A program made the position numbers and the translations under genes. 64,000 nt of DNA from Octopus vulgaris (taxonomy: Eukaryota), in contig OX597822.1 of the NCBI GenBank assembly GCA_951406725.2, positions 99,138,001-99,202,000 on the forward strand. Direction: 5' to 3'. Below the pieces are notes generated by a model. That model was not told the DNA's origin, made no database searches, and saw nothing but the letters and a program-made list of their open reading frames with translations. Shown here one piece after another: positions 6,733-56,647 of this stretch; the first letter of the stretch is position 1; every line of letters begins with the position of its first letter.

Positions 6733-6944
6733 CGCCATGTTGATTCGCTAGCTTCTGCACGCATTTTTTTTTTCCTCTCCTTGTTTCTCTCCTTGTTTCT
6801 TTTCTGTGTATCTTTCTGTTGAAGAGCGTAGGCTCGAAACGTAAAAGACTTGTTTTATTTATATTCCTGACCGCCATACTAATACAATTGTTTGTTTATA
6901 TTCCACCTGCCTTCGTCTTTTGTTTATTTTCATAAAGCTTCCCG

Positions 6945-6945
<1 letters not shown>
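6733..6945 (+). mobile_element. Short hammerhead-bearing element, family A (Penelope-like LTR or retrozyme-like); other copies ~9318-9445, ~19957-20060, ~33100-33250, ~56437-56600
   Basis: Copies share GAGCGTAGGCTCGAAACGTNAAAGACTTT...CCTGAGCG...ACTAATACA...CACCTGTCTTCGTC; four of the five end in a (TA)n tract. Confidence 0.7.
6811..6848 (+). ncRNA. Minimal type I hammerhead-ribozyme-like motif, family A (best-preserved copy)
   Basis: TCTTT-CTGTTGA-A-GAGC(GTAG)GCTC-GAA-ACGT-A-AAAGA: stem I TCTTT/AAAGA, 4-bp stem II, palindromic stem III ACGT, GUA cleavage triplet. Confidence 0.65.
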
Positions 6946-6993
<48 letters not shown>

Positions 6994-7478
6994 CACGCGA
7001 GCTTTTCTATGTTCGTATATCGAGGTAGGTGTAAAAGAAGCAACATTTACAATTATAGAAATTCATTCCTTTGGGAATTTCAAAATTCGTTAGCACGATA
7101 TATGCACGTTAAATATCTATATAAGGACATGAAAAAAATATTTATGAACCGTTACGTGCATATTCCTATGCGTGTGTTTGTGTGGAATGCGCTTATGTGA
7201 GTGCGTGTGTGAGCCTGTTTGCTAGTGAGTGTGTATGCGTGCGTGGGTTCATTTGCGCGTATTTTACTTTGTGTGTGTGTGTGTGTGTTTGTGTGTAGTT
7301 AATTAAGCCACGTGAGCAATAGTTTAATTTCCGTTTCATACACAGTTTTTCCCCCACAAAGATACTTTTATGAACGAAGTCATTTAACAAAAAAGAAAAA
7401 GCTGAATGTTTGTAAAGACCACTTCTTTGAATGGATAAATATTGAATCAATCCAGTTTGTTAAACACGCGCGTGCGCG

Positions 7479-7518
<40 letters not shown>

Positions 7519-8065
7519 TATCACCCAATTAATGACGATCATTTGATCAGCAAAGACTATCTAATTTCCTGGTCTCGGCACTTTGAAGAGGATACGATTA
7601 GCTCACCAAGACATATATATACATATATATATATATATATTATGTGTAATTGAAGTATCAAGTGTTATCTATTCTCTAGGTGGTGTTCTGGGGAGTTTTC
7701 TGTGTACGTGTTCATGTGTGTGTGTGTGTGTGTGTGTGCGTGTGTATGTGTATTATGTATGCATGTACATGTATGTGTTTGTGTGTGAAAGAGCGAGATA
7801 AGTATTCACCCAAGGATATGCCAAAGAGTAAGTGTGGTGGCTAAAATGAATATATTTACCGCGAAGACACACTACTTAGTATTCTATTTCGTCTTTCGAG
7901 AAAGTACTCAGGGTTGACCTTGAGGTCGAAAGAAAACTGAAAAGAACCGTAACTAAGTAACATCGAACTCAGCAAAGACGTTTCTTTACAACTGCTGGAC
8001 CTCGTTAGTTTTGTGTCGAATTCGTCAACCACCAGCAAGCCTGCAGTTTGGATTTGACCAAGGCA

Positions 8066-8443
8066 GATGATGGAAGCACACCGTCGGTTCCGACGACGAG
8101 GATTCCGGTTGATCCGAATCAACGGAACAGCCTGCTGCTCGTGAAATTAACGTGTAAGTGGCTGAGCACTCCACAGACACGTGTACCCTTAACGTAGTTC
8201 TCGGGGATATTCAGCGTGACACAGAGAGCGACAAGGCCGGCCCTTTGAAATACAGGTACAACAGAAACAGGAAGTAAGAGTGAGAGAAAGTTGTGGTGAA
8301 AGAGTACAGCAGGGATCACCACCATCCCCTGCCGGAGCCTCGTGGAGCTTTAGGTGTTTTCACTCAATAAACACTCACAACGCCCGGTCTGGGAATCAAA
8401 ACCGCGAGTCCGCTGCCTTAACCACTGGGCCATTGCGCCTCCA
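8066..8443 (-). mobile_element. tRNA-derived SINE (family F); partial copies 4660-4825 (+), 15468-15540 (+)
   Basis: Minus-strand head TGGAGGCGCAATGGCCCAGTGGTTAAGGCAGCGGAC...; tail CTACGTTAAGGGTACACGTGTCTGTGGAGTGCTCAGCC is shared with the other copies. Confidence 0.8.
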
Positions 8444-9497
8444 CCCAAGGCAGATAGACAAAACATGAAAGAGAAAGAGGGAGAGAGGGAAAGAGAGAGA
8501 GTTATTGAAGCAGTTGTTGACATGCATGTAGCATGAAACAAACCACATTCACAAACATTTGCACGCGTTGATATATATGTGTGTATGCATGTGTGATAGA
8601 GAAAAAAACTGTATGGAAGAATAAAAAAAAAGGGAAGGGATGTAAAAACGAGTGTGAGTACTTTTCACTATCACTACTGCCACTAGTGTTACGATTAATA
8701 CCATAATCACATATGTATCCGTCATGCTGTACAATGATGTCACGTTCACCGTAATGATGGTGGGAATGGTGCGGTAGTTGGTGGTATTAGAGGTAGTACG
8801 AAAACATTTATTGGCGCTGAAAGATGTCATATGAAATACAGTCTTTCGATATTGATATATAAGCATGTGCGGAGGACAAAAACGCATGAGAAATGGTTTT
8901 ATTGAGAAAAAGGAAGACGTGATAGACAGAAGTAGAAGAGAAAATGAGAGACATACAACACGGATAGAGGCTTGTTTCTCTAATTACATATAAAGAGCAG
9001 GGTCATAGGTAGCTTGAGACAGCTATAATTGTAGTAGTGAATTTGTATCCCTAAAAATTTAAAAGTTATCCAGGAAAGTAAGGATCGTGTTGGACTTTAC
9101 CGTTGGAGAGCTGACAAATTTAAGTTTTTATGTGCGCTGAACAACCAAAGCCGCACCGGACCGAACCCAGAAACACATGATTATAAAACGAATTTCCTAG
9201 CTATACGACATTGACAGCTCATGTGATAGCATTTTAAATTAAGATTAAGTAATTAAAACATTAATTTACCCGTGAAGATAAAAATTAAATGGACAAAAGT
9301 TCAGTAGAAATATAGATTGTTTATATGAAGAGAATAGGTTCGAAATGTCAAAGACTTTTCTATTTTTCCTGAGCGTCAAACTAATACACTTTATTTGTTG
9401 TTACCTCAGCTGTCTGTCTGTTGTCTTTTTTGTACATTTGCACGATATATATATACACATATACATAGGTGTGTATGTGTTTGTGTGCGTGTGTATG

Positions 9498-9529
<32 letters not shown>

Positions 9530-9994
9530 TGTATGTATGTATGTATGTATGTATGGAGTCAATGATGTGATTGTTTTAAATTGTGAATTCAGAAAATATA
9601 GAAATAGACTTAAATAAGCGCTGGAGTCGATATAGTCGGTCAAAAATAACCTGCAGTGCCTCAAGTAATATAGTTTGAAAATACAGCAGAGTGTTCATAT
9701 TCACCATTAAAAGATAGAATAATAGAGGATACAAATATGTGTGTGTATATGTAAGTGTGTGTGTGTGCATCTTTTTGCTTTTAATCAGAATTCTTTTTGC
9801 AAAGAAGGACTTGGTTTCTAAGAATTTGTAAGAAAGAAATAAAGCTCCGTCGTTGGATAATAACAAAAATAATATTACGTGTTGAACTTTAGAAAAGCTT
9901 GCATATTTTTGCTGTTCCACCTAAAGATTATGTGTAAAGTGCGTGTCTCCTTCTTGATTGAATATACGACCTTTTCCAGATTGTCTTTTAAACA

Positions 9995-10055
<61 letters not shown>

Positions 10056-10598
10056 GATGCAGTACCAGGCAGTGGCTCTCGTGGCTTCTAATCTTAACTG
10101 ATTGGAAGTGTTATCATTGTTTTGTCTTGGTATAAAAGATGGGCTACAGCAAATATTCTGCTCAATACCACAGATTTGCTTGTCAGTTGTTTGACCATAA
10201 CCAGTTGAGCATGTCCCTTAGTGGCTGACGATATGTGCATCTCTGATCACGAGCAGAAGTAGTGGGGGAGCATCATAGCCATGTGTTGAGAGGGATTCTT
10301 TGGGGTTTGAATAGTTCACCTCTGGAAACATGGGTGGTTCTTTCAACATCCTTAAACAACCCTTATTTAGGGACCGTTTGAGCGGGATGGGCTACTCAAC
10401 CTGAAGAAAATTCTAACTAGGCCCCACCTGCAAGGTCATGTGCTGTTTATCTTGATATGAGATCACCACGTCGCGCACATATGGTTGTGATGCATGTGCC
10501 TGGTGTACCTTTATCAGACGGGTAGTCATGATGGGCATTTTGGGCTTCGTATATTTTACCCCAGTGTCACTTTGATGGCATGAACTGCTCTCTCACTC

Positions 10599-10642
<44 letters not shown>

Positions 10643-11083
10643 CACAGATTTGCTTGTCAGTTGTTTGACCTTAACCAGTTGAGTATGTCCCTTAGTGGCT
10701 GACGATATCTACATCTCTGATCACGAGCAGAAGTAATGGGGGAGCATCATAGCCATGTGTTGAGAGGGATTCTTTGGGGGTGGGGTTTGAATTATTCACC
10801 TCTGGAAATATGGGTGTTTTGTTCAACATCCTTAAACAACCCTTGTTCAGGGACCTTTCGAGCGGGGTGGGTTACTCGACCAGAAGAAAATTCTAACTGG
10901 ACCCCACCTGCAAGGTCATGCGCTGTTTATCTTGATATGAGGTCACCATGTCGCGCACATATGGTTGTGATGCATGTGCCTAGTGTACCCTTATCAGACG
11001 GGTAGTCATGATGGGTATACTGGGCTTTGTATATTTTGCCCCAGTGTCTCTTTGATGGCATGCACTGCTCTCTCACTCAATAA
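10056..11083 (+). mobile_element. Two tandem 5'-truncated copies (10056-10600, 10641-11083) of a non-LTR element 3' end lying in (AAT)n; further copies 38885-39375 (-) and 31392-31565 (+)
   Basis: Near-identical ~450-550-bp blocks ending ...CTGCTCTCTCACTCAATAAT, each preceded by (AAT)n. Confidence 0.85.
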
Positions 11084-11539
11084 TAAGAGTAAAGAGGCTG
11101 CAAATTTCGAAGCAGTGATGCATTAATAGTCTCTTGTTTCTACAGAGATTTGCACTAAATGTCAAGACCCTGCAGGATTTAATATTTATAGGGCAGATTT
11201 CCTTTACAGGTCAGTCAAGTATTCCATACGTTGATATCAGTACCAGTTCTACAAATGATTAGTGGGATATTGTTTGGTTGTAAGAGGAAATTTTTAACTG
11301 GTTTATGATAATAACAATGAGTGCCGATGATAATTATAATAATGGTTTCAAATTTTGACACAAAGCCAGCGATTTCGGGCAGGAAATAAGTCGATTACAT
11401 CGATCCCAGTGTTCAACTGGTACTTATTTTATCGACCCTGAAAGGATAAGAGGCAAAGTCTACCTCGGTATAATTTGAATTCAGAACGTGAAGACAGACA
11501 AAATGCCGCTAAGTATTTTGCCTGGTGTGCTTCAGGACT

Positions 11540-15084: not shown

Positions 15085-15169
<85 letters not shown>

Positions 15170-15203
15170 GTTCCTGCGTATTTAAATGTGCGTGTGTGCG
15201 CGT

Positions 15204-18853: not shown

Positions 18854-20094
18854 CAGCTCTAATGAATATCGATTTGGCGTAGATGTAACCCTCTGTCCTT
18901 CAAGGTGTTACATTCTGGATATTCCGTTAGAAAATGGCTGAAAGGGCTGAACGAACAAGCTGTCTATGTCTACTTGCGCTGCTTATTAGCAAAAGCATGG
19001 TACACGTCACCATCACAGCTTGCGAATGACATCTGACAGTATTATAATTATCTCTGGCATTAAGCTTATGTCATGGTGGAAGTCTGTTTCATCGGTCAAC
19101 TGGTAGTACCAATGGAGATTCCAATTTTCGTAGGGATTTAGGGAAATAATACAGAGTATTGGCGTCCCCATGTAGTGACTTATTCCAGACGTATTGAACT
19201 TTGCTTGGCATACTAATAAAACATACGACAATGCTATAGTGTTACCGCGACTGAAATACTTACTTATAGTTACCGATTTCTTTATTACCCACGAGGGGCA
19301 CTTACTTATAGTTACCTCACATAGTAGCAGTGATGGATTATATATATATATATTGGGTCGTCTCATAAATAAAGGGGTTTTCTTTTATACTTCTTTTATT
19401 TTTCAAAATTAAGATAAGCAAAGTTCTTTTTAAATCTAAAATATACTCTCCTTTATTTTCTACAATGCTCTGGTAGACTCTTCCAAAAGGCCCCTCTTCC
19501 AAAATTCACTTGTTCGTGACGAAAAATACTCCAGTACTGTTCTGACAATTGTTTACAGAATTCATATTTTTTCCGTCCAAAGCAAAATATGCCGAATTTG
19601 CTCTTTTATCACTTCGATTATAGTTTTGAAAAAAATAACTGTTAAAATCGAACTGCACTCTTCAAAACTTGCACTAAGAATAAGCACAAGGTAAAATTAC
19701 TACCTGATTTTATAGCAATTTGATGCAGTTAGTTTATCCCCTCCCCCTCCGATTTTTAGTTCATGCAATTGAAAAAGCCGCATTATTTAAGGGATGATCC
19801 AACACACACACACACACACACATATACATATATAAGAGTGTATAAGGATTTTTACACAGAGGGATGACCCTGACAGGACGCCTTACATGATAGAAAGGGC
19901 AGTTAAACTCAAACCACGATAAAAAAAGTAATTCCAAAGTGAATGAAAACGAAAATTATTTATAGCTGAAGAGCGCAAGCTCGAAACCTAAAAGACTTTC
20001 TCACTTCCCCGAGCGTCAAACTAATACACCTGCTTGTTGTTCATACACCTGTCTTCGTCATTAACTGCAGCCATCCTGGAACACTACCTACCTA

Positions 20095-20742: not shown

Positions 20743-21319
20743 ATAATAATATTAGGGAATAAATCCAAACTTTCAGGGAAAAATGAGATTTAGGATTAAA
20801 TCCAATTTTATAGTATAAATATATTATATTATATTATATTATATTAAATTAGAGATAAAACCACTATTAGGCAAATCAAACAGTGAAAAACTTATATTTG
20901 GCTTATATTTTTAACTTTTATATTTTAAATTAATTTTATGTATTGGCTTATGTTTTTCACTGTTTGATTTGCCTAATAGTGGTTTTTATCTCTAATTTAA
21001 TATAATATATATATATGCAAGTATAGCTAATAAAGAATTGCGTAGATCTTTTTTCGTTTTTTTACCCCCCAGCTGTTTGAAGATCTTTCAATTCTCAATG
21101 GATTGTTTTCAAATTTTCAACACAAAAAGGAATCCGTGTCCTCACATGCGGAAATAGAAACTATTTGCTGTCATAATTCTCATGGCAACAAACAGACTGT
21201 CGCTGGAAATGCAATCAAAGCGAACCGTGAAAATTGAATTGTTTTTACTATAAAAGAATTTAACGAAAGTAAACAAACGAAAAGAGAAGTTTTTTTTTTT
21301 ATATATAAAAAAAGAATTT

Positions 21320-26812: not shown

Positions 26813-27780
26813 TCACACTAGATTTGCGCATACCATCACTTGTAGACGTGATCGCCTGTTCACTAGCACTCGTTGACAGTCTTGTAGATATTTTTTTAAA
26901 AACGAGTCTAGAAGCTTATTTTGCTCTCTAAAAATGTATCGGTGACATGCAGAAGCATTTGTTATGGTAGTAGAAACTTTTGCACTCCGTTCAAATTTTG
27001 GATCTTGTGCTTGACCGTTTTCCAAGGCTCTATCCAAATGTTGAAATGCTTCCACGAGTCCTTTCAATGTTAATGCATTCGCTGGGGCTTCATCGGCAGC
27101 GTCCTTTTTCTCTTCTATTGTTGCCTGTTCTTGCATTGCAATAAGCTCTTTGTTGATGAGTATGCCACTGTGATTGAAGCAGCTCATCCACGTTACTTGT
27201 TGACATGTTGAGATTCAATTCATTTGCCAGGTTTATAATTTCTTCTGTTTCTTTTTTGGATGTAGAGAAGAAATTTTGAGAATTTAGATGTAGAGAAAAT
27301 AAGAAGAATATTGAACTTATTTGATAACCAGTTGATCTAGCAAGCGGGGCCACATATCAGTGAGTGGGGGCGGGGCGGTGCGCATTGATGCCGCCGAGAG
27401 GTAGGCCCCGAAACGGCGCACATTCTCTCCTGATGAACCCATACACTTGCTGGATTCCGGTATGCGGAAATTTTGACTGGTAGCACTTGCATGTGCAAGT
27501 TGTTTGCAAGACATCATGTACATTTTCTTGTAGTGATTCAAAACCCTCGAAATCATTAAGAAATTGAGGGCAAAAATTTTTCCAAATGCCCTTCATATTC
27601 TTTTGAGTGATGTTATCCCACGCTTTTCCTATGATTTTTACTGTGGTATAAATGTTGTGATTTTCCAGCCGATCCCCCATTTTTGTCTGTTTCTTATTTT
27701 TGTTTTTCTTTGAGAATTGTGCCAACAGTTGACAAGTTAAGTGAAAATTTGTCACAAATGTTTTTCTCAGTTGTACCGCC
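26813..27780 (-). pseudogene. Tigger/pogo (TIGD1-like) transposase C-terminal remnant with frameshifts and an insertion
   Basis: KAWDNITQKNMKGIWKNFCPQFLNDFEGF; EEIINLANELNL..VDELLQS; LTLKGLVEAFQHL..QDPKFERSAKV..YIFREQ..LDSFLKK. Confidence 0.85.
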
Positions 27781-29109
27781 ATCGTGCATTTTTACAAATT
27801 CATAATTCATTTCCAAACGGATGGTTTTGCGTTTCTTTTTGTTCCCATCGGTGTGCGTTGTACACTTTCATGGTACTTGTATCGCAGAGTGGTCCCGGTT
27901 TGCGCACACGTGGATTCGCGCGTGCGCGCTAGCCAGACGTAGGTTTCAAATGACGCCACCCCGCTGGCTAAGCGAGCAGGCCAACAGAAGAAAGAGTGAG
28001 AGAAAGTTGTGGCGAAAGAGTACAGCAGGGATCGCCACCATCCCCTGCCGACTGGCTTCTGTGCCGGTGGCACATAAAAAGCACCATCCGAACATGGCCG
28101 TTGCCAGCGCCGCCTTGGCTGGCTTCCGTGTCGGTGGCACGTTAAAAGCTCCAACCGATCGTGGCCGATGCCGGACCCCCCTGGCACCTGTGCGGGTGGC
28201 ACGTAAAAAGCACCCACTACACTCGCGGAGTAGTTGGCGTTAGGAAGGGCATCCAGCTGTAGAAACTCTGCCAGATCAGACTGGAGCCTGGTGCATCTCC
28301 TGGCTTCCCAGACCCCGGTCGAACCGTCCAACCCGTGCTAGCGCGGAAAACGGACGTTAAACGATGATGATGATGATATATGATGAGCTTCTTTCAATTT
28401 CCATCTATCAAATCCCCTCACAAGGCTTTGGTTGGCCCAAGGCTATCGTAGAAAGCACTTGCCCAAGGCAAGCTTCTTACCACACAGCCACGCCTGCGTA
28501 CACTCACACAACAACAAAGACAAAAGTACTTGGCATAAGTTTAACCTTTTATTCATTATTCCTATTAACTTTCTTAGCATATCCCTAAGAGATCCAACAC
28601 AATCGTCTTTGGTAATCAAAGTCAACAAGGTGCTGATAAATATATGAATCTTTACGTACATAGATATACGTGACAATTGATATTGGGCAAGAAGCTGGGG
28701 TTTTTTTAAGCCAAAGAGTAATAATTCTTAAGCCTTGGGTTTCACAGATAGCTGGTTCGATAGGATGCTTGTTGAAGAAATGATTTCCCAAATATTCTTG
28801 CAGACTATTACTCAAGTGAAGAAGATAAACTTCAAAAAAATTCTTTGGAAACATGTTATGGAGACGCTTCTAGTTATCTGTAGCCATTGCTTACAGAATG
28901 TTCCTATTCGTAAAGGCAGTGAGCTGGCAGAGTTGTTAGCTCACCAGACAAAATGCTTAGCGGTTGAGGTTTGACTTGGCCTTTCATTCTTCTGGAGTCG
29001 ATAAAATAAGTACCAGTTGAGCACCTAGGTCAATGTAATAGACTTAATCTCTCCCTGAAATTGCTGGCCTTGTGTCAAAATTTGAAACCATTGTTATTAT
29101 TACTGTAGT

Positions 29110-30381: not shown

Positions 30382-33246
30382 TAGTAGTAGTAGTAGTAGT
30401 AGCAAGGCAAATGCGGTGAGTTGGCAGGATTGTTAGCATGTCGGACAAAATGCTTAGCTGCGTTTCATCTGCCTTTCTATTCTGGTTCAAATTCCACAGA
30501 GCTCGACTCTGCCTTTCACCATTTCAGGGTCGATGTAATCAACTAGCCTTTCCTGTAAAATTTAAGGTTTCATGCCAATGGTAGAAAGGCTTTTCAATAA
30601 TAAAGCAGCGAGCTGGCAAAATTGTTACTACACAAAAAAAAAAAAAAAAACAGCACAGTGGCTTGTCTTGCGGCTTTACGTTCTGAATTCAAATTCCACT
30701 AAGGTCAATTATACATTTCATCCTTTCAGTGTTGATAAAATAAAACACCTTCCCCAAATATCAGGCCTTGTGCCAAAATTTGAAATAACACTTTACTCTC
30801 TCTTTTACTTGTTTCAGTCATTTGACTGCGGCCATGCTGGAGCACCGCCTTTAATCGAGCAACTCGACCCTGGGACTTATTCATTGTAAGCCCAGTACTT
30901 ATTCTATCGGTCTCTTTTGCCGAACTGCTAAGTGACGGGGATGTAAATACACCAGCATCGGTTGTCAAGCGATGCTAGGGGGACAAACACAGACACACAA
31001 ATACACACACACATACATATATACGACAGGCTTCTTTCAGTTTCCGTCTACCAAATCCACTCACAAGGCATTGGTCAGCCCGGGGCTATAGCAGAAGACA
31101 CTTGCACAAGATGCCACGCAGTGGGACTGAACCCGGAACCATGTGGTTGGTTAGCAAGCTACTTACCACACAGCCACTCCTACGCCTATAACTTTGTAAC
31201 AAAATCATTATTTTTTTATGTCTTTGGTCAGTAAGTGTTATTTAATATTTGTTTCTATCTAGAAATCAAAGGAAATGACAACTATTCTCTTCAAACTTTG
31301 CTTTTGTGATCTAGACATCAATGTTTTGAAACTAACCTATTTTCCATTACATTTCACACAAATTCAGTGCCGAGTTGCTGAAGCAGAAATATCATTACAG
31401 CAAGTATTCTGCTCAATTGCACAGATTTGCTTGTCAGTTGTTTGACTATAGCCAGTTGAGCATGTCCCTTAGTGGCTGACAATATGTGCATCTCTGATCA
31501 TAGCAGAAATAGTGGGGGATCTTCATAGAAATATGTTGAGAAAGATTTTTTGGGGGTTTGAATAAATGTAACAAAAGCAAAGTCTGTAGGCAATATTAGC
31601 CATTTCTAGGAGTAAGCAAACAGGAAATAACTGTTGCTAACCTGAAGGCAAAAATCGTGTTACACAGCGTAATTAGTATTTTGGAATACTGGCCTTGACT
31701 GGCCTCCGTGCCGGTGGCACGTAAAATACACCAATCCGACCGTGGCCGTTGCCAGCCTCACCTGGCACCTGTGCAGGTGGCACGTAAAAAGGACCCACTA
31801 CACTCACGGAGTGGTTGGCGTTAGGAAGGGCATCCAGCTGTAGAAACATTGCCAGATAAGACTGGAGCCTGGTGCAGCCTTCTGGCTTCCCAGATCCCTG
31901 GTCGAACCGTCCAACCCATGCTAGCATGGAGAACGGACGTTAAACGATGATGATGATGATGATGAATCTAGCTTGGTGTTTTGCTGTGAGATGTTCTTTT
32001 AACAGAATCTTAACCATAAAAAGTGGAACATGCAATTATAAATTACATTTGACGTGCAGACACTTTGTGTTAAGAAATAAGCGAACCTGAAGTCGAGGGG
32101 TTGACAGAATCGAACAGCAGAAATATATGTCAACACTAAAGCAATAAGAGACATGCATTTTGTACACCAGACTGTTAACTAGCAAGTCTGGATAATTGAG
32201 TAATTTTTCATAACATCATATTGCAGAGGCTGCTATATTGGATTAATGGCAGAAATAGCATGTCATATTTATAAATCTCTCAAGACTTACCGATGAAATG
32301 TTCCGACTTAATTGAATTTCTCACAAATGTTGCAGCATTGTATGATAAGTGTCAGCTTATAGTAAGAGTGCATTGTTGGTTAGAGATAAAAATAATAGCG
32401 TTTATTTTTCTCGACACTCCATATTAACAGCTTAATTTAATGTTATATCTTATAAAATGATATACATTTGTAGACATACATTATATATATATATATATAT
32501 ATATGTTCTCTATATGTATTTGATAGCTTTCTTTCCTTGTCTTTCCATGTAGAAAAATGACACAATCAAAATAAATGATAATGTATCAAGATTCTGTATT
32601 GCTTTCCCTTTTTATCTTGGTAAAGACAACAGTTGGGCTTATTTAATTGGAAGTTTTCTGCAGACACAGTGTGATCCAAAAAACAAACAGAAAAACACAC
32701 AAAGAACAAAGCATGATAGATATATTTAATTATCACTTGAGGTATGCATTGAGTGACCTACGCAGATGTGCCCTAGCATGGCCAGCATTTAATGACAGAA
32801 ACAAGGAATGAATATATATATATATATTACTCTTTTACTTGTTTCAGTCATTTGGCTGTGGCCATGTCAAACAAATCAACCCAAGGACTTATTCTTTGTA
32901 AGCCTAGTACTTATTCTATCGGTCTCTTTTGCCAAATCGCTAAGTTACAGGGATATAAACATACCAGCATCAATTGTCAAGCGATATTTTTTTCTTGGTG
33001 GGGAACAAAGACAGACACACAAATACAAACATGTATATATATATATAAAACAACACGAGGACGTGGTACATGTAAAGTAGATGCTCAGGGAAAGAAAAAT
33101 AGTTTTACATTTTGATTGTGTCCCTTTCTGTAGAAGAGCGTAGGCTCGAAACATAAAAGACTTTTTCTATTCCTGAGCGTTATACTAATACATCTGTTTG
33201 TTTTGTACACCACCTGTCTTCGTCTTTTGTTTTTTTCGTAAACTCT

Positions 33247-33284
<38 letters not shown>

Positions 33285-36217
33285 CAGTCTTCTTTCAGTT
33301 TCCATCTACCAAATCCATTCACAAGGCTTTGGTTGATCTAAGGCTATAATAGAAGACACCCAAGGTGCCATGTAGTGGGACTGAACATGGAACCATGTGG
33401 TTGGGAAGCAAGCTTCTTACTACACAGCCACTCCTGTGCTTATGAGCTTTCACCCTTGCAGTACTCAAGAAGATTTGTCTTTCAGAGCAGAAGTGTTAAT
33501 ACTGCTCTCCCTGCTGAAGGGGATAGGTCTGCAAGAGACCTGTGCTAGTGCCATGTAAAAACACCCAACACACTCTGTAAAGTGGTTGGTGCTAGGAAGG
33601 GCATCCAGCCATAGAAACCAAACCAAATCAGGCTGGAACCTAGCGCAGCCCTCCTGCTTGCCAGCTCTGGTCAAACGGTCCAACTCATATCAGTATGGAA
33701 AATGACGGACATTAAAGGAGGAAGATGATGTATGTATATACACTCACATTTATTTCCATATAGAAAATTGATGTATAAACATCATCCACACTAACTGATG
33801 GATGGCAAAATGACATGGCAAGATGAAAGAGACGATACTGTTTCTAAATCATCTCAATGGATAATAGAGCATGAAAATGCAGCCAAGGAAGAACATACAA
33901 GAGCTAGTGTATATGTCCTTAGTGAAAACATTAAATGTAACTATGCAAAGAACCTTTACACAAGGTAAATCTGCACTGCATCTAAGAATAAATCCACAGT
34001 AATTAAGAGCTAAGAGCTCAATGAATAGCAAGCTGTTAAACTTCAACGTGTTTATTACATCATCATTATCATCATCGTTTAACGTCTGCTTTCCATGCTA
34101 GCATGGGTTGGACGATTTTGACTGAGGGCTGGCAAACCAGATGGCTGCACCAAGCTCCAATCTTGATCTGGCAGAGTTTCTACAGCTGGATGCCCTTCCT
34201 AACACCTACCACTCCGAGAGTGTAGTGGGTGCTTATGTGCCACCGACACGGGGGCCAGTCAGGCAGTACTGGCAACGGCCTCGCTCGAATCTTTTTACAC
34301 ATGCTACCGGCACAGGTGCCAGTATGGCGACGCTGGTAACAATCACGCTTGAATGGTGCCCTTTTACGTGCCCACCGGCACAGAAGCTAGTTAGCCACTC
34401 TGGCCCAGTTAGCCACTTGCATGTATGTATATAATCGGCTAAAGTGATTTTTAAGTCATATATTTGGCATAAATTTCGTACTTTGTGTGAATTGTATGAT
34501 CTATATGTGAAATTTGTTTTTCTGCTCCACACAGACACACACACACACATACTACTTCCCAACCATGTGGTGTTGTGCTCAATCCCAATGTCCAGCATGT
34601 GGGCAAGTGAGTTGTCAACCCACATCTGTTTCCAAGAAAGGTAATATTTCCCTATGACCAGACATTTTTTTTTTTTATGGAAGGTTGGAAACAAACGACA
34701 CCACTTGTATGACAGTGGCACTCATTTACAAATATTATGCAATGTCAAAGTAAGGAAGAGCATCCAGCTGTAGAAACACTGCCAGGTCAGACTGGAGCCT
34801 GATGCAGCCTCTGGCTCGCCAGTCCTCAGTCAAATTGTCCAAATCATGCCAGCATGGAAAGTGGGCATTAAATGATGATGATGATGTATATCATCATCAT
34901 CATCATCGTTTAACGTCCGCTTTCCATGCTAGCATGGGTTGGATGATTTTGACAGGTCTGGCGAGCCAGATGGCTGCACCTGGCTCCAATCTTGATCTGG
35001 CAGAGTTTCTACAGCTGGATGCCCTTCCTAACGCCAATCACTCTGAGAGTGTAGTGGGTGCTTTTATGTGCCACTGGCATGAGGTATATATATATATACT
35101 CTTTTACTCTTTTACTTGTTTCAGTCATTTGACTGTGGCCATGCTGGAGCACCGCCTTTAATCGAGCAACTCGACCCCGGCACTTATTCTTTGTAAGCCC
35201 AGTACTTATTCTATCGGTCTCTTTTGCCGAACCGCTATATACATGTATATGTGTGTGTTTTTTTTTTGTGTCAGTGTTTGTTCCCCACCACTGCTTGACA
35301 ACCAGTATTGGTGTATTTATGCCTCTGTGACTTAACAGTTTGGCAAAATGTGACTGATAGAATAAGTACTAAGCTTAAGATAAAATAAGTCCTGTTGTTG
35401 AGTTGTTCAACTAGAATCCTTCAAGGAGGTGCCCCAACATGGCCACCTCCTTGAAGGATTTTAGTTGAACAACTCAATACCAAGACTTATTCTATCTTAA
35501 GCCTAGTGCTTATTCTATGTAGACGTTTGCTGAGCCTTGCGATGTTAAGCCGAAATTAATACGTAGTAGGACAATGGTAGTCAACGGTAGTTTGTACATA
35601 TTTTTTACAACATTTCTTTTATGTTACCCTTAAGTTATTTTTACTTTGTAAATTTTTAATTTCTATCATTTGTATTATTTGTAAATTTTCTTTTTGCATT
35701 TTGTCATTCGTACTATACCTTTTATTCAAAAATATTTGGCATTCTTTAATTTTTATTCAAATATATTTATTTGTCATTGCTTTCATTATTATATCATCAC
35801 AAGTATATATTTCATTTTTATCCCTACATATTATTAATTTTATATGAATGTTTACAGACATAAGTTACATGAGAATTTAGTTTTTGTAAATTTTAAAATT
35901 TTTATTTGTATTTTTTATTTTTATTAAGTTTATTTGAATTAAATTATGGCTTGCACAGTAAGGCCCTGCGAACCTATTTACACATACACATACTTATATG
36001 TTAAAATTAAAATATAGTATTTGGTATAGAACTATGATAAAGTTATTTAGAGGCCTGATGATTGGGGTTGCATTTTAAGAAAAGTTCCTGTAAAACACTG
36101 CGTGCTTAAGGAACCATAAAAGAACCTCAAGAAACACGTGTAGCAGAGAAATGAGTAGTAAGTATTAAATTAAAATTCTTTTATATGGTGGGGTGAAGGG
36201 GACTACTATCTCTAAAT

Positions 36218-37339: not shown

Positions 37340-38825
37340 TTAACATTGTGGGTCTCGATCACTGTCGCAGCTACTGCCTTTGTCAATGGATGCACGAATG
37401 ACTTTGATTTCGATATTTTTTAAGGATCTATCAACTGAAGAGCTTTTAAAGTCTTTATTCTCTACCGTGACCTGCGGTATACATGCAGGCCTGTTTACAA
37501 GTGTTATGTCCTCTTCGTCGACATCCACTACTGCATCAGGTGGTGTGTGCTTTTGGTTACCTTCCATTTCAGAGACCACAATTTTGGCAATGTCACTAAT
37601 GCTATCGGTATCATCAAGTGAAATCTGACGCAACCGGTTGCGAATGACCCGTTCCATTCGATGGTGTTCGACTTCTTCTGCTTGTTTCAACGCTTTTTCT
37701 TCACTGTTCCAGAAATATTTCTCATCTTGATCGGAAAAAAATATACTACTTGTTGCGGGACTAGATGTGTCCATTAAGTATGATGTATCAATATCATCTG
37801 TAATGGTTGTGTATTCTGGATTCAAAGAAGTTAAAAGAGATGGCATTTGGCCTGCGGAGGTCCCTGCTTGGTATTTTTCATATACACTGAAGGAACCAAA
37901 CGTAACACTACTCGATGGTGAATTTGGGGTGTCAAGAGGGGAAACTGGTGTGTGACCAATGATAGCACCAGATTGGCTTTCAGCATCACGATTAAATTGA
38001 GTATCTTTTGGTTTCAAGAGATCAAGAGTCATAGTTTTGCCAGGAACTAAGGTAGCAGTGCGAGTATCAGACTCAATGGGAGCAGTGCTGTAAACACTTT
38101 TCTCTGGTAATGCCTCATTGAATTTCACTGAAGAAGCATTACACGTGGTTGGTGATAGATTTGGTGGAGAGTTATTGGAATTAAAACAGTCCTCTTGGAT
38201 TTCTTCCGGCCGTAAGTTGACGTGTAGGTTTGCAGTGACGTTACGTCGTTTCTGTAATTTTGACATGTTTAGATTAGAACTAGGTTCACCTGTACAATCT
38301 GTATCATAATTCTGCAAAGACGCTTTCTGCATGGCGTCATGAAACTGGAAAAGAGATGGCCGTTTCATTTGTAAAGGACTGGTGTTGGCAAATTTAGGGC
38401 TACGGCTACAAAGACTCCAAGAACGTTTTAAACCAATAGATGGGCTTCTTTTGCTTAGCAATGAAGGTCGATGATCAGAAAGTCTACCCATACGATTTGA
38501 AACACTACCCCTTTTAGATAAACTCGGTCTAAATAATGAAGGTGCTGCGAGTTGATCTTTCTGAGGGTAAGTGGTTTTTGGACTACTGTTATCTTCTGTT
38601 GGTTGAAGAGATTCATCACTGGTATAGTCTATGTTTGTGTCTGCATCAGAGAAGACTGGATGCCGCTCGGTTGTTATAACTTCCTCTATAACAGCAAGAG
38701 AGTCGCCCATCTGGGCAGCAATTTCTTCTAACCTACTTAATCTATAATCAATGGTTTGATGAGACAGTTTTATTGCATTCTCTTTGGTATACATGTCTTC
38801 CATGCGTGTTGTGATACTATCAACC
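37340..38825 (-). CDS. TRPM: TRPM-like channel terminal coding exon (tetramerisation coiled coil plus long Ser/Pro-rich disordered tail)
   Basis: Acceptor tttgcag|G completes Arg; continues VDSITTRMEDMYTKENAIKLSHQTIDYRLSRLEE... to the TAA stop at 37340-37342. Includes the 487-aa ORF and an EYTTITDDIDT motif resembling the TRPM1/3 tail. Confidence 0.92.
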
Positions 38826-41517
38826 CTGCAAAATAAAATAATAGAAATTAATTTCTGATTTATCTGAGAGGAAAAATATTATTATCAATGAGTGAGAAAG
38901 CAGTTTATGACATCAAAGCGACACTGGGGTATAAACATACAAAGCCCAGTATATCCATCATGACTACCTGTCTGATAAGGGTACACCAGGCACATGCCTC
39001 ACAACCATATGACCTTGCAGGTGGGGCCCAGTTAGAATTTTCTTCACAACGGGTAGCCCATCCTGCTCAAAAGGTTCAAGGATGATGAATGAAACACCCA
39101 TGTTTCCAGGGGTGAATTATTCAAACCCCAAAGAATCACTATCAACACATGGCTATGATGCTCCCACTCTACTTCTGCTTGTGATCAGAGATGCACATAT
39201 TGTCAGCCACTAAGAAACATGCTCAACCGGTTAAGGTCAAGCAGCTGACAAGCAAATCTGTGGTACTGAGCAGAATATTTGCTGTAGCCCATCTTTTATA
39301 CCAAGACAAAACATGTACATGATAACATTTCCAATCAGTTAAGATCAAATGCCATGAGAGCCACCTCGTGGTACTATTATTATTATTATTATTATATTTC
39401 CACCGAGGTTGACTTAGCCTCTCATCCATTCGGGATCGATAAATTAAGTACCAGTGAAATACTGGATTCAATGTAATTGACTAGTCTCCTCCTATCAAAA
39501 TTTCAGACCTTGTATCTTTAGTAGCAAGAATTATTATTATTATTATTATTATGTGAGGGCACATGGCTTAGTGGTTAGGGTGTTGCACTCATGATCGCAA
39601 GACCATGGTTTCAATTCCTAGAATGGATGGCGTGTTGTGTTCTTGAGCAAAACACTTCATCTCACATTGCTCTGCGATCAGTTCAACACCTGACTTGTGG
39701 TACACCATGCACCTGTTCAGACAATGTCGATTTGATGGAGTGAGTGAGCTAATGTGCAACATGAACATTTGATCACTACAACCAAATCATTTTGTACATG
39801 TCGTTCAGCAAAAGCTTATCACTCATATATCATCTTTGATGGGAGAGTCCATCATCATCATTTAGCGTCCGCTTTCCATGCTAGTATCGGTTGGACGGTT
39901 CAACTGGGGTCTGGGAAGCCAGAAGGCTGCACCAGGCCCAGTTTGATCTGGCAATGTTTCTACGGCTGGATGCCCTTCCTAACGCCAACCACTCCGTGAG
40001 TATAGTGAGTGCTTTTTATGTGCCACCGGCACGGGGACCAGGCGAGGCTGGCATATTTTTGACATGCCGATAACAACAACATTGATAACCACTACTATCA
40101 TCAATTTTAAGGTCCACTGTGCTAGCATAGGTCAGACTAGATTTGTTATGGGAAATCTTTTTTTATAACTTGATGCTCTTCCTGTCACCAACCATCATAC
40201 GTTTCCAGTAGCAACCCAGGGGGGTTGCTGCTATTTCCCTTGGGCTTGGCTTTCAAATGACAAGCAACTCAATGACTGAACCTGTTTTGGAGACAGATGT
40301 AAACAAAAACACTGTTGTTTGTTCGCATAGTGCCACGACAGCTAGACATGCCTTTTGTGGCAGACTCAAGCAATGGTATAGTGTACACAATGTGCAAACA
40401 ATGCCAGGACAATGGGAAGACACAAACACATACGCATGGAAGATGGACTTTAAATGATGATGATGATGATGATGTAGGTTTTCTCAGAAAAGTATGGCTG
40501 TAGGACTAAAGAAAGTATAGGGTTACGAGAGGACCCTCTAGTCCTGTCTCACCAAGGACAGTTAGTTCAACCTCTGTAGCATTAGTGCAATGACAAAAAT
40601 GAACCCTGTACACTCTGTAAAGTAGTTGGTATTAGGAAGGGCATCCAACCATAGAAATCAAACCAAATGTTGTGTAGGAGCACTTAAACTTAAGGAGCAA
40701 TAAGCTTCCAATAGGAGACCGACTTGAACCAAGACAAGCTATCCAACTCATGCCAGCATAGAAAGGAGATATGATGATGGTGGTGATAGTGGTAGTGGTA
40801 ATGGTAACGATGATGGTGTGATGATCATGTACTCTCTCTCTCTTTACTCTTACTTGTTTCAGTCATTTGACTGCGGCCATGCTGGAGCACCGCCTTTAGT
40901 CGAGCAAATCGACCCCGGGACTTATTCTTTGTAAGCCCAGTACTTATTCTATTGGTCTCTTTTTGCCGAACTGCTAAGTGACGGGGACGTAAACACACCA
41001 GCATCGGTTGTCAAGCAATGCTAGGGGGACAAACACACATACACAAACATATACACACACACACATACATATCGTGGCCGTTGCCAGCCTCGCCTGGCAC
41101 CTGTGCAGGTGGCACGTAAAAAGCACCCACTACACTCACGGAGTGGTTGGCGTTAGGAAGGGCATCCAGCTGTAGAAACACTGCCAGATAAGACTGGAGC
41201 CTGGTGCAGCCTTCTGGCTTTCCGGATCCCCGGTCGAACCGTCCAACCCATGCTAGCATGGAGAACGGACGTTAAACGATGATATATACATATATACGAC
41301 AGGCTTCTTTCAGTTTCCGTCTACCAAATCCACTCACAAGGCATTGGTTGGCCCGGGGCTATAGCAGAAGACACTTGCTCAAGGTGCCACACAGTCGGAC
41401 TGAACCCGGAACCATGTGGTTGGTAAGCAAGCTACTTACCACACAGCCACTCCTGTGCCTTTGATTTTTTGAAAAAATTTCTTCCACCCAAAAACACATA
41501 GTTAAAATACCACTCAC

Positions 41518-49985: not shown

Positions 49986-50079
49986 GAAGAGAAGAGAAGA
50001 GATGATTTCTTTCTAAGACAGTTCTTCCACAGAATTCTTAAACATTTATCAATTGAAATAACAACTGGCAGAACGATAT

Positions 50080-51357
50080 GCAGACATTATGAACAAAGAA
50101 CTGAAAAGCAACCTGTGGTTGGTGACATGACAGCCTAGACCTATAGAACGATACCATAACACAAGACATGACACTACTTCGTGAGAATGTACTCACAACA
50201 TCATATTCTTCGTAATGTGCATTTTGATGACATACATCAGTGATCTATGTTGGACAAATCACATCTCTAAGACTGTCAAGAAGGCCGAGGGTGTCTTAGC
50301 ATCACCCAGTAAAACCTTTGTCAGCTGCTCTCCAGCTATCTATTTAACCCTTTAGTGTTTGCATTATTCTGCCAAAATGAATCCTTTTTCATCCAAATTG
50401 TTTTGAACTAATCATGCATTATCTTGTAGCTATGAGATTCTGATGAGGTAGCTGTTAATTTTTAAAACAATATTGAAGGGCTGGTGTGAGAGACCAGATC
50501 TGGCCAGTTTGAACATAAAACAGGCAGAATACTTTTGGCCGGATATGGCCGGTTTAAATGCTAAAGGGTTAAAGTTGTACATGACTATGGTATGTCCACA
50601 CAGAATTTGCATCACCGTCAAATATCTATCATACTTTGAATGTCTTGCTTTCCTGGGCAAGGACACATTAAAGCTCTGATCTCTGGCAACTGAGCTTGTA
50701 AGTGTGGTGTGACGGAATGGAGGGGAGCGGAAGTGGGGCTTGCAGGTCTTGCAGGGCGCATGCGCCGGCGGAAGCGGAAGTGATAGACAGAATGCACGTG
50801 CGGCATCGACGAGTTGCGACAGACCCCAGCAAGGCACGAAGATGACAAGACGTGAGCAAGTTGGCTGAAGGCCATCCGACTTCATCCCCGGTCAGGTAAG
50901 ACCTAATTGCACTTCTATTTCCTTTTCCTGTTGTGCTCCTTTCATCATCCCTACTACAGTAAGCACCCACAAGATTATCCATCATCTTTCCAACAACAAC
51001 CACAGGCACCTTTTTGAATTCCATACATCTAATATTCATGGACATGCTTACAAATTCAAAAAACAACACAACACCCATGACGTTTGGAAACATTTTTTTA
51101 TGCTCAGAATTACTGAAGCATGGAATAAACTAACTGCATCAGTTAACTGTTGAGACATTATATTCTTCAAAACTTTCATGCTTCCTGAAATTCACCAACA
51201 GTACACCTGATACCCCACACCTCTATTTCTTCTTCCTTTTTTGTTTAAGACTTTTGTTCACTTCCTGTGCATATTCTATGAACTGTTCATGCAGTTTTGG
51301 TTACTTTTTCTAATGAGTTGTAGTGCACCCGAGCACTGTATACAATAAGTTCATTAT
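50080..51357 (+). mobile_element. Degenerate CR1/L2-type LINE 3' end, interrupted by a piggyBac MITE and an LTR-like insert
   Basis: Remnant translation HGHAYKFKKQHNTHDVWKHFFMLRITEAWNKL resembles the CR1 RT C-terminal RGHxxKL..R.FF..R.V..WNxL motif. Confidence 0.7.
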
Positions 51358-51364
51358 ATATATA

Positions 51365-51766: not shown

Positions 51767-53952
51767 TTATATATATTTAAATAAGTGTTTTTTTTTTCAT
51801 CACTAAACTTAAGCTAACTCTACACAAAATCTCAAATATAATTTATATCAGAATATGATTTAAACTTTGGAATATTGCTCCTACCACTCATTATAATACT
51901 CAAACAACAATAAATTTTGCTTTGCTGAAGTTGGTGAAAATTCCATTTGCAGCACACCACCACACAAACCTGTTTAAACCTCCCTGTCACACAAATACAC
52001 AAAATTTTAATCTCTGGTGCCTATGCCAAACACTAAAACTCAGTCAAACCATCAGCCCTTCTTCTTAAAAAGCTGACACCTTTGGATTTTACCTCCTGCC
52101 TGATCATGTTTACTTTCAATGACTGACTTTGAAATACTTAATTTAAGCATTAACTACACTAACCCATCTTCCAAACAAAGACAGTTTTAAAATGATTTTG
52201 GACGACATCCTTTTCTTCAACTAAAAAAAATAATTTAAAGCATGATATAATGATATCAGAATATAGCTAAATCAAGTTATTTTCAAGGTATGTAAACCAC
52301 ATTATTCTGACAGACAACAGAGGTAAAAAAATATGCAACTATAATGTTGTTTTTTTTAAAAAGAGATATCTATTCAATATAAGATTCATATAAGGTTATA
52401 GCATAACAAACTGATCATGTGTTTATACACACATTAAAAAAAAATTCCTAATATCAATGTTTATTTTCTAAATGTTTAATGTGATAGAATACAAGCAGAA
52501 GTGTAAATAAACAAGTTTTCATTTTAATTGTTGCAGCTGCAAAACTAATATAAAGCTGACAGAGTCAGCACTGAAACCCTTTCACAGCATTGAAATCCTT
52601 ACAAAGTTGACAATAGAAACTGCTTCTACTGCAACACCTTTTAACATCAATTGCGTAATATTCTGACCAAAATAGCTCTGATTATTTATTGGAACATATA
52701 TACAGGTGTAATAGGTATGGCTTTCTGCTTAAGAAACTGCAGAGTAGTTTGGGTGAGGGTCATCTGACATAATACCATTTGATTAATAGTGGAATTTAAC
52801 AGAGAGATAGAAACCATGCATATGCCTTATATATATATATATCAGATACACAGACACCTAGATATCTGCATACACACACACACACACAAGCGCGCATACT
52901 TGTATATTATACACACACATTCATGCAAATGTACATCCATATAAAGTCAAGAAGTACAAAAGGTGAATATATTCATTTAACTACAGGATAATGAGCCCTT
53001 CACAGTCTTCTTCATGTAATAATAATTTCAGTGTATAATGAATCATGTTTACATGCTTGCACTAATATGCAGGATATGTATTGTACAATACATATTATAC
53101 ATCATCATCATCATCGTTTACCGTCCACTTTCCATGCTAGCATGGGTTGGACGGTTTTGACTGAGGGCTGGCGAACCAGATGGCTGCACCAGGCTCCAAT
53201 CTTGATCTGGCAGAGTTTCTACAGCTGGATGCCCTTCCTAACGCCAACCACTCCGAGAGTGTAGTGGGTGCTTTTTATGTGCCACCGGCATGGGGGCCAG
53301 TCAAGCGGTGCTGGCAACGAACTCACTCGAATCTTTTTACACATGCCACCGGCACAGGTGCCAGTAAGGCGACGCTGGTAACGATCATGCTCAAATGGTG
53401 CCTTTTATGTGCCACCGGCACAGAAGCCAGTTAGCCGCTCTGGCAACAATCATGCTCGGATGGTGCTCTTAGCACATGCAATACATGTATTGTAGAATCA
53501 TGATTTAACCCAGAGTAGAACCAGTGCAACCACGATATTCTGGTGATATATCTGATGACCCAGCTTTCATTATCTGCATTAATTTGTAAACATACAGTTG
53601 TAGTGTATAATGCATATTAGTGGAGACATGTAAGCATAATTCATTATACACTGAAATTATTATTACAAGAAGATGGGTCCTGTGGTTAAATGGATATATT
53701 CACCTTCCATACCTCCTGACATTTTATGGTTTATATATATGCCTCATGAAATAATTTCATTGATCAGATTACTTAGATTTCAGCTGCTTGGAACTCTGCA
53801 TTATACTCGTCTGTACTGGATTACTACGTGATCTGCTGGATGGGTCCACTGGAGGAGATTTCTGTGGTAGCCACACTATTCTATGAATCCATATATTACA
53901 CTACACACACACACACACATATATATATATCTCAACCATATACACACATTTT

Positions 53953-54648
53953 GCCGTGCGTGAGAAGACCCGGCAAGCCAAATGAGACCATAATCCCGTG
54001 GCCTCTGCCAGGGGCGTAACCAGCCCACTTATGTGTACCCTTTTCCTTCTTTGGACACTAAAACTCTGCTTGCGAAGACCTGTTGAAGCAAGTGAAATCA
54101 AAAATCAAAATCAAAATCGATGACTGGTGTCCGTGCTAGCAGGGTGCAAAGAGCACCATATGAGTGTGATCATTGACAGAGCGGCTAACTGGCTTCAGTG
54201 CCAGTGGCACTTAAAAGGCTCCATTCGAGTGTGATCATTACCAGCATCGCCTTACTGGCACTCGAGCCCCGTGCTAGTAGGGTATTAAGAGCATCATCTG
54301 AGCGTGATTGATGTCAGAGCGGCTATCTGGCCTCCGTGCCGGTGGCACGTAAAAGACACCATTCAAGCGTGATCGTTATCAGTATCGCCTTACTGGCACC
54401 TGTGCCAGTGGTATGTGTAAAAGATTTAAGCATGGTTGTTGCCAGTACCGCCTGACTGGCCCCGTGCTGGTGGCACGTAAAAAGCACCGACTACACTCTC
54501 AGAGTGGTTGGCATTAGGAAGGGCATCCAGCTGTAGAAACTCTGCCAGATCATGATTGAAGCCTGGTGCAGCCATCTGGTTCGCCAGCCCTCAGTCATTC
54601 GTCCAACCCATGCTAGCATGGAAAGCGGACATTAAAAGATGATGATGA
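53953..54648 (+). mobile_element. RTE-type LINE 3' end with ~60-bp tandem units and a (GAT)n tail; truncated copies 3563-3652, 27990-28376, 31690-31964, 33500-33730, 34060-34400 (-), 34752-34886, 34890-35080 (-), 39850-40052 (-), 41073-41283, 53099-53470 (-), 54728-54987, 56888-57211, 59363-59550 (-), 59800-60070
   Basis: Putative ORF end AVREKTRQAK*, repeated GTGCCGGTGGCACGTAAAAAGCACC units, GGAAGGGCATCCAGCTGTAGAAAC, tail AACCCATGCTAGCATGGAAAGCGGACGTTAAACGATGATG, and variable 5' truncation. The clade assignment is inferred. Confidence 0.75.
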
Positions 54649-56597
54649 TATATATATATAAACTAATTATGCTGTATAATTAACTGTAATATGCAGATGT
54701 ACCAATCTCAGTATTCATCATAAATGTCTTGGCACCTGTGTCGGTGTCACGTAAAAAACATCATCCGAGCGTGGCTCTTCGCCAGCCTCGTCTGGCACCT
54801 GTGTCGGTGGCACATAAAAAGCACACACTACACTCACAGAGTGGTTGGCGTTAGGAAGGGCATCCAGCTGTAGAAACACTGCCAGATCTGACTGGCCTGG
54901 TGCAGCCTTCGGGCTTCCCAGACCCCAGTTGAACCGTCCAACCCATGCTAGCATGAAAAGCGGACGTTAAACGATGATGATGATGATGTATAATATGGAC
55001 ATTCTACAAGATTATTCAAAGAAATCTTTCATCTTAAAGACAATGTTTTGTAACTAATTCAATTTGTTTATCTTTTAAATAGTCAGTTGTTATGTTGCTT
55101 TAGGTGTTCCATTTTTTAGTTTAACCTTGTATGTACTTTAGATTATTGGAATGGTATAAAAGGAAAGTTGTTCCTGAATTTCTTTGATAGTATTTTTAGA
55201 GTTTATTTGTTTTAAATTCTTTTATACATTCTTTTAAACTTTGCTAATTTTGTCTTACGCTTAATGATTTGTAAAATCTTATGCGCATCACGTATATATA
55301 TATATACATACACAAACACACAAATATATACACACACCTAAGTACATCTACATACATATAAATATATATACATACATACAAACACATATACATACAAATA
55401 CATATACATACATATGCACACACACCCATGTGTGTATGCATATGTATACACACGCAAATATCTGTATGTGCGCACATTAGGCATGTGTATATTTTTCATT
55501 GATATATATCAGTGAAAGATATAAACATATAAACACCAAAAGAAACGTGGAAAGCTGGCGGTTTAGTAACTAAGTTCCCTCTGTTATTAATACTCTTTTG
55601 TTACTCTCACTAGTTCACTGCTGTCAGGAATATGTACAGTAAACCAGTGATAGGCCTATTGGAAACCTATAAACCAAGAATGCTATTGTTCACAGTTTGA
55701 GATACATAAATAAAATACACATCTGTGCTTTTAACTACGGCCAAAAATATCTGCCTCCATGTATGCAATAAGAAGTGACATTTAGATAGCATATGTAAAT
55801 AGAAGCAATAAATACAGACATTGATTTGGACAGAAAAAAAAAGTAAGTTATCTTCTGACTTGGAATTAATTCAAAAAAGTTCAACACAGCAAATTTAAGT
55901 CATTGGTAGAAGTATTGATACAAACTGGTTAAACAATTGCCAGTCATTTGAGAGTATGTCAAATCATAGTTTGTAGTTCAAATTAATTTTTTTTGTTCCC
56001 GTTCTCTTCCATCGGGACACTTTTAACTCTTTTGATACCAACCTACTTGAGACCAATGTGCCTGATTCTATGGGACCAACTTTCTGCTTAAGTGTTTTAA
56101 ATTACAACCTTCCTTCAAAATTCTGTGTTAATCACCGACTTAATAAATGACCTCATTATTTTATCAAATTTTTAATTGTTTTCAAAATTAATTGATACAA
56201 AGCAGTATATTTTTTTTAAAAATGGTAATTAGGTTCACTAATGATTCAATGCTTTTAATATACTGCTTTGTTTCAATTAATTTTGAAAACAATTAAAAAT
56301 TTGATAAAACAGTGAGGTCATTTATTAAGTTGGTGTTTGGAACATAAATTAACACAGAATTTTGAAGGAAGGTTGTAATTTAAAACACTTACAGGCAGAA
56401 AGTTTGTTTCATAGAATCAGGCACATTGGTCTCATGATAGATCGCTAGCCACTACACATTTTTTATTTTCTCTCCTTGTTTCTTTCTGTGGAAGAACATA
56501 GGCTCGAAATGTTAAAGACTTTTTCACTTCCTGAGCCTTATACTAATACATCTGTTTGTTGTCTACACCATCTGTCTTTGTCTTTTGTGAATTCTCC

Positions 56598-56647
<50 letters not shown>

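Follow-up and report, generated by a model that had tools for sequence, protein, structure and literature searches.

What becomes of a self-cleaving RNA motif when a base of its core is changed and the element carrying it goes on to multiply? This question is raised by a stretch of 64,000 nucleotides from the Octopus vulgaris genome (assembly GCA_951406725.2, contig OX597822.1, positions 99,138,001 to 99,202,000 of the forward strand; hereafter the window), which contains five copies of a repeat carrying a motif that resembles the minimal hammerhead ribozyme of Penelope-like retroelements (PLEs). Where hammerheads normally have A at position 6 of the core, the motif has U (U6) in the three copies with a CUG core. 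Attention had been drawn to it by an original prediction made from the letters of the window. Here we argue, at a probability of roughly 0.55, that the repeats are 5'-truncated copies of a PLE repeat with a U6 minimal hammerhead for which little or no self-cleavage is predicted.

The repeat and its hammerhead-like motif

The original prediction described a five-copy family of short elements. The five copies are indeed homologous, all on the + strand and at the places it had given, but the element is larger than the motif, extending over 100-210 bp (213 bp in the longest copy), and a related inverted fragment at 33050-33115 had been overlooked. A search of the window with a model built from the five copies (cmsearch) found no sixth full copy. 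The copies, the motifs of the three that carry a CUG core, and the inverted fragment are arranged as follows.

6733..6945, + strand: copy 1, the longest (213 bp), between two (TA)n tracts (6682-6732 and 6946-6990)
6811..6848, + strand: motif of copy 1, with stem I TCTTT/AAAGA, core CTGTTGA plus an extra A, stem II GAGC/GCTC, then GAAA-CG-T-A
9326..9447, + strand: copy 2, 5'-truncated at about G8, without a CUG core, stem II broken, with a short TA/AC run behind it
19967..20062, + strand: copy 3, without a CUG core; stem II intact, loop GCAA; stem III ACCT; 3' end outside (TA)n
33050-33115, - strand: inverted, diverged and shorter related fragment, head-to-head with copy 4, starting near C11.1/G12 and ending in a TA run
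33117..33249, + strand: copy 4, of the majority sequence type, ending in (TA)n within another repeat
33123-33160, + strand: motif of copy 4, with core CTGTAGA plus A, U6 at 33131, stem III ACAT
56434..56600, + strand: copy 5, ending in (TA)n; intronic and antisense in a TRPM3-like gene
56481-56518, + strand: motif of copy 5, with core CTGTGGA plus A, one mismatch in stem II, ATGT, and U17

In copy 1, which shares the 5' flank of the family, U6 lies at 6819 and the predicted cut follows 6843. The 38-nt consensus proposed earlier matches 6811-6848, 33123-33160 and 56481-56518 with 0, 2 and 3 mismatches, respectively, and three consensus matches were reached in none of 100 shuffles. As a consensus of five copies it stands for copies 1, 4 and 5 and falls for the core of copies 2 and 3, which lack CUG and whose homology to the others begins only at about G8, so that the consensus core rests on three copies. 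Copies 2 and 3 are of the same sub-lineage type; they may form a subfamily whose core was destroyed, or truncation may have struck one and the same core position twice, in AT-rich targets of a similar kind. A TTTATA-like stretch (9316-9325 and 19955-19966) lies just before the start of homology in each, and the two have downstream variants in common.

The architecture is that of a type I fold, with a stem I of 5, 4 and 5 bp in copies 1, 4 and 5. All five copies have an extra A between A9 and G10.1, and in all five G10.1-C11.1, A10.2-U11.2 and A15.1-U16.1 are paired. The 4-bp stem II is intact in three of the five, which retain GAGC/GCTC as had been claimed, and pairing is found in 87% of the 54 cells over the five motifs. 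A hammerhead descriptor that leaves position 6 free calls two of the five copies. Only copy 1 has a palindromic stem III, and it alone is flawless, with GAAA-N-N-U-H and the palindromic 15.2/16.2 intact. Two other readings of single copies were considered and rejected. A canonical CUGAAGA register in copy 3 would leave only 2 bp in stem II and is not called by the descriptor; a splice acceptor in copy 4 (pyrimidine tract plus CTGTAG) has its AG in only one of three copies, and the U-rich flank is part of the published consensus for PLE minimal hammerheads.

That the variation follows hammerhead rules, as was originally stated, is too strong. Double-sided, compensatory change occurs in 0 of 11 pairs over the five copies, which are few for such a test; in copies 2 and 5 the break in stem II is not compensated, copy 3 reads ACCT in stem III, and no compensatory change was found for U6. 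Narrower parts of the claim hold. Position 7 is free, being T, A and G in the three CUG-bearing copies, and ACAT and ATGT are indeed the CpG-decay forms of stem III, but they are no sign of constraint, CpG decay being neutral. The motif is real, and it shows decay rather than covariation.

What of the family beyond the window? Copy 4 served as the reference for a contig comparison with four of 24 listed public runs, from which it drew 22,607, 16,394, 7,971 and 4,171 contigs. In run X11 the summed depth is higher by a factor of about 10^5 in the shared part than at the copy-specific junction (5-7 million vs 77), a ratio that is not a copy number. Scaling 5 copies per 64 kb to 2.8 Gb gives about 2 x 10^5 copies, of the same order as the depth ratio, and as a rough estimate an Octopus vulgaris-type genome would hold roughly 10^5 copies. 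Variants, listed from 3% of depth upwards, start at 33147, with positions 3-11, including N7 and the CpG at 33139/33140 (changed in copies 2 and 5), outside the assessed part. Within that part G12 and 15.2/16.2 show CpG-type changes, with G at 16.2 in 81-95% of depth and T at 15.2 in 4-11%, and one stem I base changes from G to T in 5-13%. The statement that position 17 is never G is borne out both by the copies, which have A, C, A, A and T, and by the four runs, none of which lists G there at 3%. The family-level variants are carried separately by copy 1, by copy 5 and by copies 2 and 3. Behind 33236, loose ends continue into CTCTCCC(TA)n in all four runs.

Relation to Penelope-like retroelements

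To what kind of element does such a motif belong? The minimal hammerheads in the pseudo-LTRs of metazoan PLEs (Cervera and De la Pena, 2014; PMC4209133) share with it the type I topology, a short stem I, an extra H between positions 9 and 10.1, the G10.1-C11.1 pair, GAAA with a palindromic CG and UH, and U-rich 5' and AU-rich 3' flanks. Like the octopus repeat, they occur mostly as solitary truncated copies. The octopus motif fits their consensus, U-rich NNN CUGANGAH G..C GAAAN palindrome NU H NNN AU-rich, except at position 6, and its 4-bp stem II lies at the short end of their range of 3-7 bp; its stem I and its stem II loop fall within the ranges of the group, 3-7 bp and 3-10 nt. The core was first described as non-canonical on two counts, of which U6 remains. 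The insertion after A9 is a conserved feature of the PLE group, present between A9 and G10.1 in 54 of 56 published representatives; being the H of the published CUGANGAH, the extra A is not new. All 56 representatives have A6, in contrast to the octopus motif, but the main descriptor used to find them demanded cuganga, so it does not follow from this count that U6 never occurs naturally. The earlier warning that CUGANGA searches would miss the motif proves right, since the published descriptor has this requirement and Rfam matches no hammerhead to the window, to its part 6740-6940 or to the metagenome contigs L005 and L007 described below. Because its core does not read CUGANGA, the octopus motif is not a plain member of the published group. 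It has the build of a PLE minimal hammerhead and descends from one, and position 6 is the new variation.

The way in which the copies end also fits PLEs. The 5' truncation is variable among the copies, and four of the five have a common 3' end, 102, 98, 94 and 87 nt from the predicted cut, while copy 3 ends earlier. Long (TA)n is found at the 3' end of three copies and on both sides of copy 1, and (TA)n is a listed target of the octopus Naiad and Hydra PLEs (Craig et al., 2021; PMC8557442). In PAc, a Poseidon PLE of Anolis carolinensis, the cut lies 26 nt and the start of reverse transcription 111-118 nt after the start codon (Frangieh et al., 2024; PMC11167929), from which a distance of 85-92 nt can be derived, near the octopus values. 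In PAc insertions, too, some 90 nt separate the hammerhead from the 3' end, and the targets are AT-rich; PAc differs in that its hammerhead is active and its open reading frame (ORF) intact. Finally, 31 recently active PLE families are reported from O. vulgaris (PMC13282606).

Inverted truncated partners are a known PLE structure as well (PMC8557442). The fragment at 33050-33115 (cmsearch E 5e-05) is part of an inverted pair whose 33-nt arms are 76% complementary, and its alignment score of 39 with copy 4 exceeds all 300 shuffles (maximum 27). Against copy 5 it also exceeds all 300, and against copy 1, 20 of 300 shuffles scored as high. Such a partner is found at one of the five copies, the other four having none. 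The 3' part of the inverted arm (33050-33078) has a depth in X11 about 500 times that of a single locus (38,000 vs 77), and the arm is probably part of a second, shorter related subfamily.

Could the hammerhead likeness have arisen by chance in the tail of an ordinary short or long interspersed element (SINE or LINE)? No ORF is linked to the copies in the window frames scanned, Rfam and covariation are silent as noted above, and in folding the five motifs do not stand out (z-scores -1.15 to +0.40), all of which would suit such a tail. Set against this, 60 shuffled windows held on average 0.18 descriptor matches of any kind and just 0.017 comparable ones with a palindromic stem III and a stem II of at least 4 pairs. 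Features that suit PLEs are the (TA)n tracts flanking copy 1, the inverted partner and the distance between cut and 3' end; ARAGORN found no tRNA gene, a weak test that would miss decayed heads. A chance resemblance is thus very improbable in our view. The original prediction also named a retrozyme. One without long terminal repeats, spreading via small circular RNAs cut from tandem repeats, would agree with the short, non-coding, low-GC sequence and with a go-back joint seen in a few contigs, and mollusc retrozymes do exist (PMC7229834). Yet those described from animals are tandem repeats of 150-450 bp with canonical type I hammerheads (PMC7229834), whereas all five copies here are solitary rather than tandem, of unequal 5' length and of the minimal type, which makes this the least probable of the explanations considered.

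The repeat is therefore likely to be the 3' terminal repeat of a PLE or of a non-autonomous derivative, and a PLE origin as such we hold to be highly probable. The original prediction of a cephalopod Penelope-type minimal hammerhead is well supported by the match in architecture, by the PLE insertion hallmarks and by the TRPM3-like gene of the window, which is 99% identical to that of O. vulgaris. By analogy with the PLE literature, an element protein with reverse transcriptase (RT) and GIY-YIG domains would nick AT-rich DNA and, on RNA left uncleaved, begin reverse transcription some 90-100 nt past the hammerhead. Reverse transcription would mostly stop early, leaving stubs of 100-210 bp and, occasionally, inverted partners.

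Minimal hammerheads in PLEs, including an octopus family, are already known, and the kind is not new. Hydra-1_Obim, of the Hydra clade in O. bimaculoides (Craig et al., 2021; PMC8557442), is a PLE that also comes from an octopus, targets (TA)n and carries its hammerhead close to the 3' end. It differs in belonging to another sequence family and in having a canonical CUGAAGA core, a 7-bp stem II and a 4-bp stem III. Six 10-12-nt probes specific to the repeat described here were not found in the supplement of that paper, where line breaks could hide a match. From giant squid, 235 Rfam hammerhead-1 matches have been reported (PMC6962438). The literature searched held neither a natural A6U hammerhead nor the octopus repeat; Luense et al. 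(RNA Biol 14:1499) may list position-6 variants, and Repbase, Dfam or the O. vulgaris repeat library on Zenodo (Bonar et al., 2026) may hold the repeat.

Uridine at position 6 and self-cleavage

Did U6 arise in the individual copies or before them? It is present in all three CUG-bearing copies, which are 80-88% identical and represent three variant types including the majority type, a pattern that independent decay would produce with p of about 1e-4. Since U6 is found in three copies of three sub-lineages, it was most likely already fixed in the source elements. The change from A6 would thus have taken place in the source lineage and would predate the split of the sub-lineages. It may have been tolerated because insertion does not need cleavage.

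The same architecture was found outside the octopus. A metagenome search gave eight loci, none from octopus, of which six appear chance-like and two, on the contigs L005 and L007, have a stem I and palindrome of their own. Both contigs are AT-rich and animal-like, and both carry the minimal architecture with U6:

L005, 2468-2494, - strand: motif with U6
L007, 72-98 and about 1043-1072: two motifs, one with U6 and one with canonical A6

Because L007 holds both bases, U6 can elsewhere be a change at the level of single copies. Searches of viral contigs gave 0, 9 and 0 loci, none of the nine with a CUG core, and those of prokaryote genomes gave none and then one chance-like locus. Spurious translations of the repeat in protein databases offered no candidates for reading position 6, only two unrelated repetitive proteins. 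It could be argued from L007 that the octopus family is mostly A6, with U6 confined to the branches sampled here; the motif would then be a standard PLE minimal hammerhead. At the position aligned with U6, copy 2 reads A, but this A belongs to a non-homologous TA-rich flank, and the run comparison does not reach position 6. With U6 in all three informative copies, the majority type among them, a mostly A6 family is nonetheless quite improbable.

What would U6 mean for cleavage? In a pairwise mutagenesis scan every single mutant of CUGA was low in activity (PMC9901934), and the natural A6C hammerhead described below performs poorly in Mg2+. Folding predicts that the share of molecules with an open core falls from 0.34 with A6 to 0.012 with U6 in copy 1, and from 0.18 to 0.018 in copy 4, because U6 lets UGUU pair with AACG and the core collapses into a hairpin. 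Even canonical PLE minimal hammerheads cleave poorly in vitro (PMC4209133), and a review describes PLE hammerheads as weak and dimer-dependent (PMC6765202). PAc with a catalytically dead hammerhead inserts normally in vitro, and no RNA ends were observed at its hammerhead cut site (PMC11167929); Naiads multiply without canonical hammerheads (PMC8557442). Residual cutting of the octopus RNA, if any, would need two motifs pairing via the ACGU palindrome.

The strongest alternative, though in itself unlikely, shares the PLE origin and takes U6 as a working, selected variant whose dimer cleaves usefully, perhaps with a protein or Mn2+, while the hairpin silences monomers. A natural substitution at position 6 is known from phage Bcep176, whose A6C hammerhead is slow in Mg2+ and fair in Mn2+, the preferred ion (Perreault et al., 2011; PMC3088659; Naghdi et al., 2020; PMC7151607). 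There the base is C, not U, and it belongs to a single phage motif with measured activity, as opposed to a high-copy retroelement family. U6 has persisted through at least three sub-lineages. Among copies 1, 4 and 5 variation in the core is limited to the free positions 7 and 17, with no difference at the other ten bases, and G17 is missing from all four runs as described. Invariance of ten bases has, at this divergence, a chance probability of 0.10, and the lack of compensatory pairs, the low activity of CUGA mutants and the poor cleavage of even canonical relatives all speak against a working U6. The specific proposal of an octopus PLE lineage of about 10^5 copies with an active A6U hammerhead, its monomer silenced by the hairpin and switched on by a dimer, a protein or Mn2+, is rated as doubtful.

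Several points weigh against a crippled hammerhead and have to be set beside it. The ribozyme of the mutagenesis scan was a different one, of type III, and the statement excerpted covers CUGA mutants and gives no A6U value; the folding energies take no account of metals, proteins or dimers in context. Some observations hint at continued constraint. Of 107 columns just two have three states, N7 being one of them (chance about 2%, post hoc). Position 17 varies in the runs to T only, at 3.2, 19.8, 16.6 and 17.5% of depth, and A13, A14, A15.1 and U16.1 have no variant at 3%, which in comparison with the downstream part is not significant (p 0.57). The family-wide state of position 6 lies outside the part assessed in the four runs, no variants being listed upstream of 33147. 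Finally, the PLE origin is inferred, as the defining ORF link is missing: Pfam gave no RT or GIY-YIG match in 149 frames, taken from 224 filtered window frames of at least 55 aa. All considered, a crippled PLE hammerhead carried through a large amplification is favoured over a working variant.

Surroundings of the repeat and what it may tell

The window also contains exons of a TRPM3-like channel gene.

37340-62421, - strand: TRPM3-like channel gene, six exons
37340..38827, - strand: its terminal coding exon, 1.5 kb, 99% identical to an O. vulgaris protein

Copies 1-4 lie beyond the stop codon of this gene, and copy 5 alone is intronic. Selection against intronic cleavage was considered as a cause of the strand bias of the five copies and rejected, since it could apply to just one copy and the + strand is favoured by three other repeats as well (27 of 42 matches). 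The surrounding DNA holds further repeats. Self-BLAST showed long imperfect palindromes resembling miniature inverted-repeat transposable elements at 541-700, 2825-2994, 20830-21015, 35357-35518, 56048-56434, 59009-59170 and 63285-63757. At least three other high-copy SINE-like families have 11-17 BLAST matches each in the window (e.g., 1-180, 3559-3654, 4212-4441), and copy 4 lies inside the central TA tract of one of them. A near-tandem duplication of 480 bp spans 10164-11086 (1.9 copies, 91%), with a related copy near 38877-39395. The frames at 26816-27791 (- strand) and at 50671-51150 and 57596-57919 (+ strand) have no Pfam match and are presumably decayed remnants, which we take to resemble pogo/Tigger-, CR1- and piggyBac-type elements.

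What PLE minimal hammerheads are for is an open question in the field, and a very high-copy family with a change in a core base amounts to a natural experiment on it. If U6 RNA is dead while an A6 control cuts, catalysis would be dispensable for amplification in a living lineage, something so far seen only in vitro and for one element. If U6 RNA cuts, the hammerhead core would tolerate a substitution for which no natural report was found, and censuses of the motif would undercount. Were the active A6U hammerhead to prove true, it would be the first natural A6U core, and similar families changed at position 6 would have been missed by every search based on CUGANGA.

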